From positions 365 to 64,364 of the forward strand of contig JBAXBU010000007.1 of the NCBI GenBank assembly GCA_037141835.1: 64,000 nucleotides of DNA, read 5' to 3'. Shown here in pieces: positions 14,058 to 26,488 of this stretch. Origin of the DNA: Armatimonadota bacterium (GTDB lineage: Bacteria; Armatimonadota; Fimbriimonadia; Fimbriimonadales; Fimbriimonadaceae). Numbering within the stretch: the first letter of the stretch is position 1; each line of letters opens with the position of its first letter. A program made the translations under genes and the position numbers. The notes beneath the pieces were generated by a model. The model searched no databases, was not told the DNA's origin, and saw only the letters and a list, made by a program, of their open reading frames with translations.

Positions 14058-15014
14058 GTGATTGCCATACTTCTTGCCCCTATATTGTTCGCAAAGCCCG
14101 AGGTCTCAGCGTGGGTGGTTGGCTATAACGACGAGAGCATTAAACGGTTTGAGGAACGTGCTAAACAACTTAACACCGTCTTTATGGAGTACTACACTGT
14201 CAACCCTAGCGGCATGCCAGTCCGTCGAAGTCGTTACGATAAGACATTTGCAAAGGCTCGAGAAATTGCAAAAAAGAATCAAGTTGAGTTCTTGGGAATG
14301 ATCAACAACTACTCAGATGGAGAAGGTACCGACGGATTCGAGGCCACGAGAATGACAAAAGCCGTTGCTACTTCGGAATCCAGATCCGCCCATGTTGTGG
14401 AGTTAGTGAAAATGCTCAAACAAGACGGCGCCCAGGGTGTGGACCTTGACTTCGAGTCGATGAAAGGCGATGACCGAGACCGGTACAGCACTTTTGTAGT
14501 TCTCCTTGCTAGGGCACTCCACAAAGAAGGAATGAAGCTATCGGTAACCGTTCATCCAAAACAAGAAATTTTCGGAGGCTGGGATGCCGTCAAAGCACAA
14601 GACTACAAGGCCCTCGGTTCAGTCGCAGATCGCTTTAACGTCATGACATATGATTACAGTTGGAGTACGGGACCTGAAGGCGCTATTGCTCCAAATGATT
14701 GGGTAGAGCGTGTAATAGCCTTTGCCGCGACTCAAGTGCCATCAAGTAAGATCGGCGTTGGCATTGCCTGCTACGGTTACGATTGGAGCAAGAAACCTGC
14801 TACATCGTTGGCTTGGTCGGATTTTAAGCCAAAGAACCCAAAAGTTGATCCGACAAGCGGAGAAATAATCGATGGGAATACTCACTTTAGCGGTGCCGAA
14901 GCATTCCGAACGAAGTACTTACTGGCAACAAAGTTAGGTGTCAAGTCCGTCGCCTTTTGGTACTGCGGATCAGAGGAACCGGCAATTTGGAAACTACTTC
15001 CTACTCGCCGCTAA
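14058..15014 (+). CDS. Secreted glycoside hydrolase family 18 protein
   Basis: GVDLDFE catalytic motif, NVMTYDY, IGVGIACYGYDW, terminal VAFW. Confidence 0.9.
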   Translation: MIAILLAPILFAKPEVSAWVVGYNDESIKRFEERAKQLNTVFMEYYTVNPSGMPVRRSRYDKTFAKAREIAKKNQVEFLGMINNYSDGEGTDGFEATRMTKAVATSESRSAHVVELVKMLKQDGAQGVDLDFESMKGDDRDRYSTFVVLLARALHKEGMKLSVTVHPKQEIFGGWDAVKAQDYKALGSVADRFNVMTYDYSWSTGPEGAIAPNDWVERVIAFAATQVPSSKIGVGIACYGYDWSKKPATSLAWSDFKPKNPKVDPTSGEIIDGNTHFSGAEAFRTKYLLATKLGVKSVAFWYCGSEEPAIWKLLPTRR

Positions 15015-15759
15015 GGTTCCTTAGGTTAAAGGCAATCGCTTCTTGAATGTGGAGATCCCAATATTCCCAATTGTGGTCTCCCGAAAACTCCTGATACTCG
15101 TGGTCTATTCCAAATTCAGTAAATTCTTGTTGAAGGGATCGATTTGAATCTAGCAAAAAATCTTCCGTCCCACAGTCAAAGCGCAGGGCAGGCAACGGAC
15201 TTGCATTCTTTGCAAGCTCCACCAAGTCATCTTTTCCACCTGGCGTGACTTTGCCAAACACCGGAATAAATTCTCGGATGAATGCGTCCTGGCTGTGCCT
15301 TCCGGTTTCAATCTCTTCGTTTGGATAATAGCGACCAATAGTCACCGCGCCGGAATGCGAAACCGCAGACCGAAACAACTCTGGTCGCTCTAGTGCGATT
15401 CGGAATGCTCCATATCCGCCCATCGACAGTCCGGCAGTGCACCATTTGCCTTTGATGTCAAACCAATGGTCCAGAAGGTCAGGCAACTCGTAAGCGATTG
15501 CCTGCAAGTATTGAAACCCTTGGAGCGCGTCTACGTAGAAGCCACGCCCGCCGTCCGGCATGACTACAATGAGAGGTTTGTCCGCGACATAGCGCTCAAT
15601 CGAGGTTCGGCGTTGCCAAATGGAGTGGTCGTCACTGAGTCCATGCAGCAAAAGCATGCAATGGTAAGGTCCGGGCACATTTTTGTCAGGATAGATGACG
15701 AAACTACTCGTTGCTTTTTGCAACGCCTGAGAAAAATAGCGAACCTCGTGAAGAGACAT
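15001..15759 (-). CDS. Putative esterase (alpha/beta hydrolase, tributyrin esterase/FrmB-like)
   Basis: LLHGLSDD, GLSMGG nucleophile elbow, DCGTEDFL, HNWEYW. Confidence 0.9.
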   Translation of the reverse strand: MSLHEVRYFSQALQKATSSFVIYPDKNVPGPYHCMLLLHGLSDDHSIWQRRTSIERYVADKPLIVVMPDGGRGFYVDALQGFQYLQAIAYELPDLLDHWFDIKGKWCTAGLSMGGYGAFRIALERPELFRSAVSHSGAVTIGRYYPNEEIETGRHSQDAFIREFIPVFGKVTPGGKDDLVELAKNASPLPALRFDCGTEDFLLDSNRSLQQEFTEFGIDHEYQEFSGDHNWEYWDLHIQEAIAFNLRNLSGE

Positions 15760-15767
15760 TCAGCTCT

Positions 15768-16061
15768 TTAGTGGTGATGACCAGCTTGCGGATCATACCA
15801 TTCGTTAATAAGATCCTTATCAACGTTGCTTCGATACCGGAACCAAATATACAGGTTCATAACGAAGGCAATGATTAAACCGTAGCCAAATCCATGCTTC
15901 GCGACTTCAATATCAACAACTCGGTAATCAAAGTGCCATTCCTTGCCAAGGGCAGAGGAGGCGTAGAATCCAAAAGTCGGAATAACGACCATCAAAACTG
16001 CTCCAAGTATTCGGGCAATCTTTGCATCTTCTTCCAAAATCGGCTTCTCTTGTTCTGACAT
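15768..16061 (-). CDS. Small two-TM hypothetical membrane protein
   Basis: Two hydrophobic segments; CATAAT 6 nt upstream of the ATG. Confidence 0.65.
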   Translation of the reverse strand: MSEQEKPILEEDAKIARILGAVLMVVIPTFGFYASSALGKEWHFDYRVVDIEVAKHGFGYGLIIAFVMNLYIWFRYRSNVDKDLINEWYDPQAGHHH

Positions 16062-16144
16062 ATCGTCATTATGACGCCTATCGCTAAATTTCTGTACCTA
16101 TGAATCCCGCCGGAAAACCAAATTCTGCAAATTGACGTGGAAAT

Positions 16145-16423
16145 CTATTTCAAAAAGCGATTGAGCGTTGTTCTAAGCTCCTTGACCTTTTCTTCTCTCG
16201 ACTCATAGTGATCATGCTCTTCACCAAAAACGCAGTCTTCCACGTGATGGGTCAGCAATATGACGCCGAGCTGGTCTAGCGCTGCTCGAAGAGCAGAAAC
16301 CTGGGTTAGTACATCTACGCAATATCGCTCTTCATCTAGCATCTTCTTGATGCCATTGACCTGTCCAGAAATTCTGTTGAGTCGACGCTTTGCGTCTTCG
16401 TAGGTTGGGTTTGTTTCGTTCAT
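16145..16423 (-). CDS. csoR: CsoR/RcnR family metal-sensing repressor (Cu-type C-H-C fingerprint)
   Basis: [34 protein letters not shown]; start moved to MNETN at 16423. Confidence 0.88.
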
Positions 16424-16465
16424 CCTGCCAAGCCTGTGCTTCAGGAGCATTATAACAGGACAAGA

Positions 16466-16494
16466 TTGGAGGTTAGGCAAAACCTAACCTCCAA
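16466..16494 (-). terminator. Hairpin downstream of the thioredoxin gene
   Basis: TTGGAGGTTAGG-5nt-CCTAACCTCCAA perfect 12-bp inverted repeat; weak U-tract. Confidence 0.6.
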
Positions 16495-16499
16495 AGTTT

Positions 16500-16931
16500 T
16501 TATTTCTTAATCTTTGCGGGAGATTTCGAACCACCTTTCTTGGCGGCGTCCTTGAGAAACATTGCTAACGTTTTAGCATCAAGGGCACCTTCTGCCTTGA
16601 GAACAACTTTGCCGTTCCCGTCCAGAACCATGAGTGTCGGTAAGAGACTGACTTTGTATTTCGATCCAGTCTTCTTGCCTTCTTTGTCGATATTTTGTTT
16701 TACTGTGACGAACTGCCCCAGCTTCTGAATCGCCAACTTGTCTTTATAAGTTGTTCGATCCATTTCCATACAACTTCCTCACCAATCGGCGTAGAAGTCA
16801 ACAAAGATGAGTTGCTTTGATGCCTTTGCCTGTTTCAATGCGCTACTGAGATCTCGCTTCCAATTAACTTCAGAATGAGCTAGTGACGCCAAAACGGCAA
16901 GGCACGCAATGGTAAATGTTAATTTCTTCAT
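16500..16931 (-). CDS. Exported thioredoxin-fold protein with in-frame TGA (probable selenocysteine, UxxC)
   Basis: ORFs 16779-17009 and 16500-16769 are in one frame: GAC TTC TAC GCC GAT TGG TGA GGA AGT TGT ATG = DFYADW-U-GSC-M. SD GAGG before MKKLTF; signal peptide. Confidence 0.85.
16747..16776 (-). promoter_or_regulatory. Candidate bacterial SECIS hairpin
   Basis: Immediately 3' of the TGA: AAGTTGT-ATGGAAATGGATCGA-ACAACTT, a 7-bp perfect stem with a G-containing apical region. Confidence 0.55.
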
Positions 16932-16975
16932 CGTAACCTCACATATATGATGCCACGAGTAAACTAAAAAATCAC

Positions 16976-18454
16976 ATGAGTGAAAAGCAATTCCGCCTTT
17001 ACGACTCACTTTCTCGGAAAGTGAAGCCCCTAACTCCTTCCGAGCCAGGACATCTTCGCTTTTATACTTGCGGACCTACTGTTTACTCTTACGCGCACAT
17101 CGGGAACTTCCGATCCTTCCTGTCGGCAGACTTAATTGTCCGGACTGCCCGTGCGATTGGCTGGAAAGTCACATGGGTTTCCAACATCACCGATGTTGGA
17201 CACCTCACCGACGATGACATTGCCGACGCAACGGGTGAAGACAAGATGGAAAAAGCCCTCCGATCGAAGGAAGGGGAACAGTTTCATAACGTTTGGGAAT
17301 TGGCAGAATATTATGAAGCCGCCTATCGAGAAGACTGGAAATTGTTGAATTTGGTTGAGCCAGACGTCAGGCCAAAGGCAACGCAGCACGTGCGAGAGCA
17401 AATTATTGCGGCGGAAGATCTCATTGAAAAAGGATTTGCCTACGAGACTCCAACGGGCGTTTACTTTAGCGTTGAGAAGTTCCCGAGTTACGGAAAGCTG
17501 AGTGGCAACACACAAGAAAGCCTTCGAAAAGGAGTGCGCGATGTTGTCCTTGATGAGAACAAGAAGGATCAATCTGACTTTGCAATCTGGAAAAAAGACG
17601 ACAAACACCTCATGCAGTGGTTTTCGCCATACGGCTGGGGCTTTCCTGGCTGGCATATCGAGTGCTCCGTCATGGCAAGGGCATATCTTGGAGACACAAT
17701 TGATCTCCATAGTGGGGGAGAAGATAACAAATTCCCTCACCATGAATGCGAAATTGCTCAGAGTGAATCTCTAACTGGGAAACCTTTCTGCGAACATTGG
17801 AGCCATACGGCTTTTCTTCAGGTGAACGGTCAAAAGATGTCCAAAAGCCTGGGGAATTTTTACTACGTCAGAGGCTTGATGGCAAAGGGGGCAGATCCTC
17901 TTGCAATTCGTTTCGCATTGATTTCAGGCGTATATCGAAAGAACTTGAACTTCACAGATCAGGGACTCGAAGATGCCAAAACAAACATTGATCGATTCCG
18001 AAGAGCCGATGTCGCAGTACAAGAGGCACTTGAATCGGGAGCTGAAGGAGAAGATGTACTGGGGACCGAACTCGAATCACTCTATGATCAAGCTCTTGAA
18101 GCGATGCTGACTGATCTCAATACTCCGATTGCCATCTCAAAAGCGCTTGAAGGCGCAAAAGCAATTACTCGAGATCCAATCAATAAGGCCTCCGCAATGT
18201 CAGGTGAACAATTTTTGACCAGAATCAATGATCTCCTGGGAATTGTGCGGCACCCTGTTGACTTAGAATTGCCAGAAGATTCCAAGACATCCTCTGCAGA
18301 TGAAGCTCGGATTTTGGAGCGAATTGAAGCCCGCAAGGCTGCGAAAGCTGCCAAAGACTGGGGACTTGCTGACACCATTCGAAAAGATCTACTGGCCGAA
18401 GGAATTTCGCTGACTGATAATTCCGATGGCACCGTAAGTTGGACGCTCGCGTAA
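16976..18454 (+). CDS. cysS: Cysteine--tRNA ligase
   Basis: YTCGPTVY..AHIGN, NITDVGH, GFPGWHIECS, DLHSGGEDNKFPHHECE, KMSKS. Confidence 0.98.
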   Translation: MSEKQFRLYDSLSRKVKPLTPSEPGHLRFYTCGPTVYSYAHIGNFRSFLSADLIVRTARAIGWKVTWVSNITDVGHLTDDDIADATGEDKMEKALRSKEGEQFHNVWELAEYYEAAYREDWKLLNLVEPDVRPKATQHVREQIIAAEDLIEKGFAYETPTGVYFSVEKFPSYGKLSGNTQESLRKGVRDVVLDENKKDQSDFAIWKKDDKHLMQWFSPYGWGFPGWHIECSVMARAYLGDTIDLHSGGEDNKFPHHECEIAQSESLTGKPFCEHWSHTAFLQVNGQKMSKSLGNFYYVRGLMAKGADPLAIRFALISGVYRKNLNFTDQGLEDAKTNIDRFRRADVAVQEALESGAEGEDVLGTELESLYDQALEAMLTDLNTPIAISKALEGAKAITRDPINKASAMSGEQFLTRINDLLGIVRHPVDLELPEDSKTSSADEARILERIEARKAAKAAKDWGLADTIRKDLLAEGISLTDNSDGTVSWTLA

Positions 18455-18484: not shown

Positions 18485-19039
18485 ATGAAAGTTGTCGTTT
18501 CCGCTGTTCTTGCGATTCCTGTGCTCGTGTCTCTTGTAGCTTGGAAGGGCTCAAGCGAGTTTCCCAAATTTGTCACCAACAAAACGTTATATGCGAAAAA
18601 TGACTTTCGCGGAAAGGAATTCAAAACCTTGCAGTTTGGAAAAGTGCTTTCCGGAAGTATTCCTGCACCCAAAGACCTAAAGGGCAAAGTTTTGCTCATC
18701 GATTTCTGGGCAACTTGGTGTGGTCCTTGCCGGGCAGTCATTCCTGAGATGAATGAATGGAAGACCAAATTCGAGAAGGATCTGGTTATCGTTGGGGTTA
18801 GTAACGAAAAGCCTGAAGTGATTCAGGAATTCATGAAAGGCACCAAAATGGACTACGCAGTCACGACGGATATTGACAAGACGATGTCAAAAATTCTCGG
18901 TGTCGAGGGAATTCCCCATGTCTTGATCATTTCTCAAGACGGCATCGTTCGATACCAAGGCTTTCCATCTCAAGCCGAGGACAAGCTCACGACTGAGAAG
19001 CTTGAACAGATAATCAAGGCAAATCGAGAGCTGAAATAG
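18485..19039 (+). CDS. TlpA/ResA-like thiol-disulfide oxidoreductase
   Basis: N-terminal anchor; LIDFWATWCGPC; GIPHVLII. Confidence 0.9.
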   Translation: MKVVVSAVLAIPVLVSLVAWKGSSEFPKFVTNKTLYAKNDFRGKEFKTLQFGKVLSGSIPAPKDLKGKVLLIDFWATWCGPCRAVIPEMNEWKTKFEKDLVIVGVSNEKPEVIQEFMKGTKMDYAVTTDIDKTMSKILGVEGIPHVLIISQDGIVRYQGFPSQAEDKLTTEKLEQIIKANRELK

Positions 19040-24691: not shown

Positions 24692-26488
24692 ATGGATCAA
24701 TCGCGCATCCGCAACTTTTGCATCATCGCGCATATCGATCATGGCAAGTCAACACTTGCTGACCGCCTCATTGAGCGGTGCGGTGCCATTCGCGGAACTG
24801 CCCAGGAGCAGATGCTTGATTCGATGGATATCGAACGTGAGCGTGGAATCACCATCAAAATGGCGGCTGTCCGCCTTTTGTATATCGCCAAAGATGGACT
24901 CGAGTACGAGCTTAACCTTATTGACACCCCAGGGCACGTTGACTTTACTTACGAAGTATCTCGGGCTCTAGCTGCTTGTGAAGGCGCATTGCTCGTAGTA
25001 GACGCGAGTCAAGGCGTTGAAGCCCAGACCATTGCGAACGCCAGCATGGCGATGACCCAGAATTTAGAAATCGTTCCCGTCATTAACAAAATTGACCTTC
25101 CTCATGCCGACGTCGAACACGCTCGACGCGAAATTGAAATGGCAGTTGCAATCGACGCAACAGACGCCATTCCTTGTTCGGCAAAAGCGGGAATTGGAAT
25201 TGATGAAATCCTCGAAGCAATTGTTGCCAAAGTTCCTGCACCCCAGGGTGATGCGAACAAACCACTTCGCGCACTCATTTATGACAGCCACTTCGATGCA
25301 TACCAAGGCGCGGTAGCGTACATCCGGGTCATCGACGGCTCGATCAAGAAAGGCGACCGAATCCAAATGATGGCTTCGGGCAAAGACTACGTCATTGACG
25401 CCACGGGCCACTTCGGTCCCGGGCTAACGGTTAACGATGGTTTGAATTGTGGCGAAGTAGGCTTCATCGCTGCCGCCATGAAGTCCATCGGTGATGCGCA
25501 AGTAGGTGATACTGTCACCCTTAAAGAGAATCCATCCAACGAGGCGCTGCCTGGCTACCGTCAAGCCCTGAGCATGGTTTTTTGCGGACTCTATCCAACG
25601 GACGGTGATCAATACGAAGACCTTCGAGATGCGATCGGAAAGCTTAAGCTCAACGACGCTTCACTCCAGTTTGAACCAGAAACATCTGCCGCCCTCGGCT
25701 TTGGATTCCGTTGTGGCTTCCTTGGTCTTCTCCACATGGAAATTGCTCGAGAGAGGTTAGAGCGAGAATTCAATCTTGACCTGATCCTCACGGCGCCAAG
25801 CGTTGACTATATTGTTAACAAAAAAGATGGCGAAATGCTCCACATCTCGAACCCGAGCGAATTTCCGGATGCCAACGAAATTTTGAGCATCCAGGAGCCA
25901 ACCGTAAAGGCAACCATCATGGTTCCGGTTGAATATGTTGGAGCGGTCATGAACCTCTGCCAAGATCGTCGCGGAACCTACACCAAAACGGAGTATCCGA
26001 CGCCTCAGCGAGTCATTCTTTACTACACCCTCCCGCTTGGCGAAATCCTCATGGACTTCTTTGACAAGTTGAAGTCGGGAACGAGGGGTTATGCCTCCTT
26101 CGATTACGACATTGACGAGTATGTGGTCTCCGATCTGGTTAAACTTGACATTCTCCTCAACGGGGATATTGTTGATGCTCTGAGTTTCATTGTCCATAAG
26201 TCGTTCTCCTATAACCGCGGACGTGGGGTTGTTGAACAGCTTCGAAAGGTTGTACCTAGACAACAATTTGAAGTCCGAATCCAAGCCGCCATTGGTTCCA
26301 AAGTCATCGCCGCTGATACGGTCAAACCGTACCGAAAGAACGTTATTGCAAAGTGCTACGGTGGCGATATCAGCCGAAAGCGAAAACTGCTTGAAAAGCA
26401 AAAAGAAGGTAAGAAGCGAATGAAGCAAATCGGCTCGATTGAACTTCCGCAAGAAGCTTTCCTTAGCGTTCTGAAAGTTACGGAATAG
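24692..26488 (+). CDS. lepA: Translation elongation factor 4
   Basis: [56 protein letters not shown]; start MDQSRI at 24692. Confidence 0.98.

Follow-up and report, generated by a model that had tools for sequence, protein, structure and literature searches.

A probable exported selenoprotein with a thioredoxin fold and a U-G-S-C active site in an Armatimonadota genome

Two neighboring open reading frames in the window, the whole 64,000-nucleotide stretch of Armatimonadota DNA that was analyzed, raise the question of whether the TGA codon between them ends a gene or is read as selenocysteine (Sec) within a single thioredoxin-like protein. The ORF list breaks this region into 16779-17009 and 16500-16769. 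Read on the minus strand from 16931 to 16500, the sequence opens with an ATG (16929-16931), contains 50 sense codons before a TGA (16779-16781), and continues with GGA AGT TGT and 89 more sense codons to a TAA stop (16500-16502). The first-pass annotation had joined two in-frame halves at this one TGA into a 143-aa product, and our re-reading of the sequence agrees; its coordinates, 16500-16931, also stood, and the strand, which it had left unstated, is in fact the minus strand. The joined product is MKKLTFTIACLAVLASLAHSEVNW...FVDFYADW-U-GSC-MEMD..., and its N-terminal sequence is MKKLTFTIACLAVLASLAHS|EVNW. The features of the gene are as follows.

16500..16931, minus strand: complete coding sequence of the probable selenoprotein, 143 codons plus the TAA stop with one in-frame TGA; this architecture is common to 11 orthologues.
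16779..16781, minus strand: putative UGA codon for Sec at residue 51; positional orthologues have TGC (Cys) here.
16770..16781, minus strand: redox motif U-G-S-C, at the N-terminal end of helix 52-59; orthologues have U-[GS]-S-C and Cys forms C-G-P-C.
16872..16931, minus strand: signal-peptide-like N-terminus, residues 1-20, with MKK, a hydrophobic core and A-H-S followed by E.
16937..16940, minus strand: Shine-Dalgarno-like GAGG, 6 nt 5' of the ATG, as read from the sequence.
16466..16494, no strand assigned: perfect palindromic hairpin of 10-12 bp directly past the stop codon, with a T-run on the plus side only.

The Shine-Dalgarno sequence and the downstream hairpin that had been described for this gene are thus both seen. 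The hairpin at 16466-16494 lies between the stop codon and a CsoR-like gene and scores as an intrinsic terminator on the plus strand only; the genes on either side of it are both on the minus strand.

We searched 60 relatives in six frames and recovered the orthologue from five more species of the same genus (64-96% identity), each time with a single TGA at that codon. The set was then extended by a seventh species (G447; 70% identity, genome 74% complete) and by four metagenome contigs that were reached via truncated database fragments. All 11 distinct sequences (seven species genomes and four metagenome contigs) have TGG-TGA at the same codon, followed by [GS]-S-C, and because this arrangement is common to them all, the coding signal across the TGA is far beyond chance. 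Over the 75 codons past the TGA, synonymous differences outnumbered nonsynonymous ones in 14 of 15 pairs; between the genome of the window (G000) and G010, for example, 30 codons were identical, 30 differed synonymously and 15 nonsynonymously. This excess indicates that the region after the apparent stop is translated and under selection. These data confirm that the gene is real and is one coding sequence across the TGA.

A TGA at this position is only one base away from TGC or TGT, and gene callers split or shorten the gene, as might be expected if a Cys codon had suffered a nonsense mutation, leaving a dead gene, or had one base miscalled in assembly. However, the 11 distinct sequences that share the TGA come from independent assemblies and studies, the frame beyond it is open with mostly synonymous changes, a hairpin downstream of it (described below) is co-conserved, and the machinery for Sec is present. 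Conservation effectively refutes this explanation, and we give it almost no credence.

Public gene calls treat the two halves as separate (L064, 439-591 and 601-894; L066, 433-585 and 601-864; ORFs of 50 aa and 87-97 aa). The protein is present in public databases only as about 25 clusters of 81-115-aa fragments that start just past the TGA and are named "thioredoxin-related protein" or "hypothetical protein", with the N-terminal piece sometimes called as a separate 50-aa ORF. These annotations and the 25 fragment clusters would be in keeping with two genuine products, a 50-aa secreted peptide ending at the UGA and a separately made 89-aa ORF that starts at M55. However, such a split severs the thioredoxin fold before helix 1 and loses the nucleophile, and the C-terminal fragment would have neither a signal peptide nor half of the CxxC motif. 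No SD-like motif was found upstream of M55, and M55 itself is not kept, being K or S in some orthologues, while the database fragments begin at differing Met residues. We consider two separate products very improbable, and the splitting of this gene in public gene calls is a systematic mis-annotation. The practical value of reading the gene as one is an annotation fix: the fragment clusters, at least 25 in number, are C-terminal stumps with no curated model to rescue them.

Counterparts with Cys at the active site were also found. Two full-length relatives in the protein database (P0001 and P0002; 58-61% identity) have W-C-GPC, and the codon at the Sec position in both is TGC. The genes that surround the locus in the window are as follows.

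15001-15759, minus strand: esterase-D-like hydrolase, on the same strand as the selenoprotein gene.
15768-16061, minus strand: small two-TM membrane protein ending in HHH, downstream of the CsoR-type repressor.
16145..16423, minus strand: CsoR/RcnR-family metal-sensing repressor, 92 aa, C...H-x3-C, downstream on the same strand; PF02583 was matched on the orthologous neighbors.
16976..18454, plus strand: cysS, cysteinyl-tRNA synthetase, 492 aa, divergent and 44 bp from the selenoprotein start; kept at both Sec and Cys loci.
18485-19039, plus strand: second exported thioredoxin-fold protein, Redoxin/TlpA-like, with W-C-GPC and a signal peptide, located past cysS.

The contigs of P0001 and P0002 and the window share the same gene order (redoxin, cysS, then divergently the Trx gene, the CsoR-like gene, a 112-aa membrane-protein gene, an esterase and GH18), which identifies P0001 and P0002 as positional orthologues. 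The trio of redoxin, cysS and Trx is thus kept on the Cys-orthologue contigs too. Other species of the genus have more distant Cys forms, at 37-40% identity. In a small tree, ten Sec forms clustered (88/92 support), and the Sec form of G031, the Cys forms P0001 and P0002 and the distant Cys group fell into a polytomy, so no direction can be assigned to the Cys/Sec switch. The prediction that orthologues would retain the TGA in several species and align it with Cys in relatives was therefore borne out. With U-G-S-C and C-G-P-C at the same locus, this clean natural orthologue pair could reveal what Sec buys a periplasmic oxidoreductase.

The genome of the window, an Armatimonadota metagenome-assembled genome that is 95.6% complete, encodes the components for Sec synthesis and insertion. 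By profile score, selB (339 bits, cut-off 242), selA (425 bits, cut-off 268) and selD (360 bits, cut-off 125) were all found. The selD gene (L009, G000:C108, 210-1115) contains one in-frame TGA in the context TCAG-U-AAKL, and the selenophosphate synthetase SelD of this organism is itself a selenoprotein. The genome also has a tRNA-Sec scoring 70.4 bits against a gathering score of 47; its anticodon is UCA, its discriminator is G73, and the CCA end is encoded. G73 is the discriminator of the canonical serylated tRNA-Sec, and U73 is recognized by CysRS. Thus, all four genes that the first-pass annotation had proposed looking for (selA, selB, selD and tRNA-Sec(UCA)) are present. A variant genetic code was rejected: RF2 is present (478 bits) and TGA terminates 366 of 1530 long ORFs (24%), from which we conclude that the code is standard and the recoding site-specific, as had been argued from TGA serving as a normal stop elsewhere in the window.

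The presence of selB was compared with that of the TGA form across the genus. Of the 46 genomes in the genus, 12 have selB above the cut-off. Among the seven genomes in which the gene has TGA, six carry selB, including all five of the other orthologue genomes tested, and the remaining one is just 74% complete. It did not exceed the cut-off in G002, G024 or G025, the genomes that carry the distant Cys form. A tRNA-Sec was recovered from three of the five other orthologue genomes tested, and the two misses are fragmented assemblies.

It may be asked whether UGA-51 is read as another amino acid, either as Cys by a SelC*-type tRNA-ReC or as Trp or Cys by near-cognate tRNAs. Genes resembling tRNA-ReC have been reported from five of five Armatimonadota genomes with UXXU hydrogenases (PMC13582414), and at 95.6% completeness a second tRNA could be missing from the assembly of G000. 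However, ARAGORN found no second tRNA(UCA) or tRNA-ReC in that assembly, so that the only UCA anticodon belongs to a tRNA that scores as tRNA-Sec and has G73. In addition, selA and selD are intact, selD is itself recoded, and the Cys forms use TGC where the Sec trait is absent. Decoding as a different residue is therefore improbable.

We conclude that UGA-51 of the thioredoxin-like gene is very likely decoded as Sec, which would make the protein a genuine selenoprotein; actual selenium insertion at this codon is what we infer from the data above and from the hairpin described next. This agrees with the first-pass annotation, which had proposed a hidden selenoprotein with UGA in place of the nucleophilic Cys of WCxxC, and the machinery, the orthologues and the Cys pairs all support that proposal. 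The opposite pattern, an absence of Sel machinery from a complete genome with TGT or TGC in all close orthologues, had been named as grounds for abandoning it; instead the machinery is present and 11 sequences carry TGA.

Bacterial recoding of UGA would require a SECIS element in the mRNA, and one candidate was identified.

16726..16762, minus strand: candidate SECIS hairpin, 37 nt, beginning 16 nt past the UGA; it is the lowest-energy fold predicted for the mRNA that follows the UGA.

The hairpin has a lower stem of 7 bp (UGGAUCG/CGAUUCA), an AA/G internal loop, an upper stem of 6 bp (CAACUU/AAGUUG) and an apical loop of 8 nt, AUAAAGAC. RNAalifold predicted the same structure from six genome orthologues, with 96% of cells paired compared to 17-51% when the 3' partner was slid by 1-3 columns. 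Over all 11 sequences, 137 of 143 cells were paired. One pair covaries, being A-U in four sequences, G-U in two and G-C in five; the 3' change is nonsynonymous (Leu to Ser) and the 5' change is silent (ACA to ACG). The homologous 37 nt fold at -12.2 kcal/mol in G000, compared to -2.7 and -3.5 kcal/mol in two Cys orthologues. The hairpin is thus kept in all 11 Sec sequences and lost in the Cys orthologues. When the same peptide was recoded synonymously over 66 nt, 8% of recodings folded as well, a weakly significant result. More distant Sec paralogues with W-U-GWC have unrelated strong hairpins that start at a similar distance, 15-17 nt from the U of the UGA.

We compared this element with the E. 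coli fdhF-type SECIS and the bSECISearch consensus (loop of 3-9 nt, stem of 4-16 bp, 16-37 nt from the UGA, MFE of at most -7.5, and G at loop position 1 or 2). As in that model, the hairpin lies within the coding sequence shortly after the UGA, and its sizes, spacing and energy are all inside the ranges given for such elements (PMC13188914): the loop has 8 nt and the upper stem 6 bp, the apical loop lies 31 nt from the UGA, and the MFE is -12.2. In contrast to the model, neither of the first two positions of the apical loop is G; the loop retains a G at a more 3' position, and a G is bulged out of the 3' strand of the stem. The bSECIS model is known not to cover a subset of bacterial SECIS candidates (PMC13188914). 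A scan of 16450-17000 against Rfam at E <= 10 gave only chance snoRNA and miRNA matches and no SECIS family. The hairpin is a well-conserved bacterial SECIS candidate that breaks the apical-G rule of prediction tools.

A different hairpin, at 16745-16779 and starting 2 nt past the UGA, had been put forward earlier for this gene. Its cells are 87% paired with no compensatory change, five of its ten pairs are broken in some orthologues, and its loop is only 13 nt from the UGA. The two structures overlap and are mutually exclusive, and we rejected the earlier one as the weaker candidate, less well supported than 16726-16762.

We propose that SelB carrying Sec-tRNA-Sec would bind the mRNA hairpin that begins 16 nt past the UGA and thereby recode UGA-51 as Sec while competing with RF2. 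Once made in full, the pre-protein would be exported by its signal peptide, and the periplasmic U-G-S-C pair may cycle between the selenol/thiol and selenylsulfide states while reducing or exchanging disulfides of envelope proteins.

With U read as C, the predicted protein matched Thioredoxin (PF00085; 53.8 bits, threshold 23.5) and Thioredoxin_7 (PF13899; 45.9 bits, threshold 27), both matches spanning the TGA, and it also exceeded the Pfam threshold for PF13098. An AF2 model (mean pLDDT 81, core above 90) shows a thioredoxin fold of beta-alpha-beta-alpha-beta-beta-alpha topology, with the active site at the N-terminus of helix 1 and U51 immediately before helix 52-59. Residues 1-19 are disordered or helical in the model (pLDDT below 50), and the cis-Pro, P98, is invariant across orthologues. 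DsbD gamma domains gave its best structural matches (1VRS, 2FWG and 1UC7; TM about 0.8, rmsd 2.1 A), and thioredoxins came next. Among solved chains, the nearest in sequence was 2KUC, a "putative disulphide-isomerase" (E = 1e-15), with DsbD gamma domains at about 1e-10.

Export is predicted from the N-terminus, which resembles a signal peptidase I-type signal peptide: the n/h/c layout and an AxS/AxA-like cleavage site are kept among orthologues while the residues drift (FAQS|Q, FAFA|G). We also considered and rejected a lipoprotein reading of the Cys in TIAC, as position -3 is Thr and the Cys is missing in G031, L064 and L065. The locus is best explained as a single gene whose product, small and exported, is a thiol-disulfide oxidoreductase with a thioredoxin fold, a stand-alone protein of the DsbD-gamma-like (Thioredoxin_7) type with Sec as the attacking residue. 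A role as a periplasmic reductase is somewhat favored by its sequence features and homology, from which the direction of redox flow and the partners are likewise predicted. G000 also encodes a full-length DsbD of 633 aa (L063, 907-2808, G000:C112) with alpha, TM and gamma domains, which is a plausible candidate electron donor. The gamma domain of this DsbD carries an unusual C-T-N-C motif.

Although the gamma domains of DsbD (PDB 1VRS, 2FWE-H and 1UC7) resemble the selenoprotein at 28% identity and share its expected periplasmic location, the protein differs from DsbD in being a stand-alone 143-aa product that has a predicted signal peptide of its own, lacks the alpha and transmembrane beta domains, and carries Sec in place of Cys. 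The DsbD model NF001419 gave the best NCBIfam stretch, in which positions 455-572 of 574 were matched at 62 bits against a cut-off of 330. Identification as DsbD was rejected because the three-domain alpha/beta(TM)/gamma architecture is absent and the true DsbD is encoded elsewhere in G000. Two curated families share a Thioredoxin_7/DsbD-gamma-like domain with the selenoprotein. The Trx7/PDZ selenoprotein (NF041199) differs in having CxxU, with Sec second, and a PDZ domain, and TsoB (NF045694) is a 572-aa rhodanese/DsbD fusion with UxxxxU. Scores of 23.7 (cut-off 300) and 57 (cut-off 805), respectively, fall far short of membership in either family. No curated NCBIfam family, selenoprotein models included, reached its cut-off with this protein.

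Among bacterial selenoproteins, UxxC proteins with a thioredoxin fold form the commonest type. The exported ones are an established catalogue class (PMC13188914), and an earlier suggestion that exported selenoproteins are comparatively uncommon is overstated. Like the catalogued thioredoxin-like members, the protein described here has a thioredoxin fold, Sec for the first Cys of CxxC, Cys homologues and a recoding hairpin within the ORF. Compared by description, it differs in that its best model besides generic thioredoxin is Thioredoxin_7/DsbD-gamma, and in that the dipeptide between U and C is G-S or S-S rather than the G-P of the catalogued class. Within the well-known UxxC class it is a rather typical member that has yet to be catalogued, and its novelty is modest, namely a stand-alone DsbD-gamma-like subfamily with no matching curated selenoprotein model.

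Nor is Sec new to the phylum, for which the first-pass annotation knew of no described Sec use. Across 401 sampled Armatimonadota genomes, selA was above the cut-off in 212, and group 4 [NiFeSe] hydrogenases with a canonical SelC were published in 2026 (PMC13582414). The phylum has received little study, and the Sec trait is present in about half of its sampled genomes; the protein described here gives it an additional, probable redox selenoprotein of the envelope.

The conserved neighborhood bears on possible function. A CsoR-type repressor adjoins both the Sec and the Cys forms and is absent in G031, and the downstream order (window 15001-16423) is conserved at most orthologue loci. These downstream genes may form a copper, formaldehyde or thiol-stress module, and the conserved CsoR-type neighbor hints at a link between the selenoprotein and copper or envelope thiol stress. 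It is a tentative and rather doubtful possibility that the protein is the founding example of an uncatalogued subfamily of stand-alone periplasmic DsbD-gamma-like U-[GS]-S-C proteins that would be confined to an Armatimonadota clade, locked to cysS and a CsoR-type copper/thiol-stress repressor, and served by a distinct bSECIS class with no apical-loop G.

Other genes in the genome are likely recoded as well. A crude genome-wide scan for TGA-containing ORFs was very noisy (848 motif matches), and a codon-usage filter failed to rank known cases at the top, so candidates were accepted only when a Pfam domain spans U. Two outside the window passed, namely a deiodinase-like protein on the plus strand of contig C28 (TGA at about 26288-26290; FGSCT-U-PPF; T4_deiodinase, 117 bits, spanning the TGA) and a Prx-like protein on the plus strand of contig C128 (TGA at about 926-928; W-U-PFC; AhpC-TSA, 94.6 bits, spanning the TGA). 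The organism demonstrably maintains a small redox selenoproteome.

Two further TGA-spanning ORFs, both on minus strands, score well as coding sequence before and after the TGA alike: a 407-aa ORF on contig C35 (GNC-U-QNG) with no Pfam match, and a DUF2268/GldB-like ORF on contig C36 (SAG-U-TSF). These may be selenoproteins, pseudogenes or artefacts. In other families of the same order, we additionally found distant Thioredoxin_7 proteins with TGA at the first Cys (L031, L039, L041 and L043; genomes G054 and G050), with motifs such as DFYTDW-U-GWC and DFYADY-U-GSC and, in some cases, lengths of about 330 aa. At least four TGA-containing matches come from G054 alone, suggesting that Sec-Trx7 paralogues have expanded in its family.
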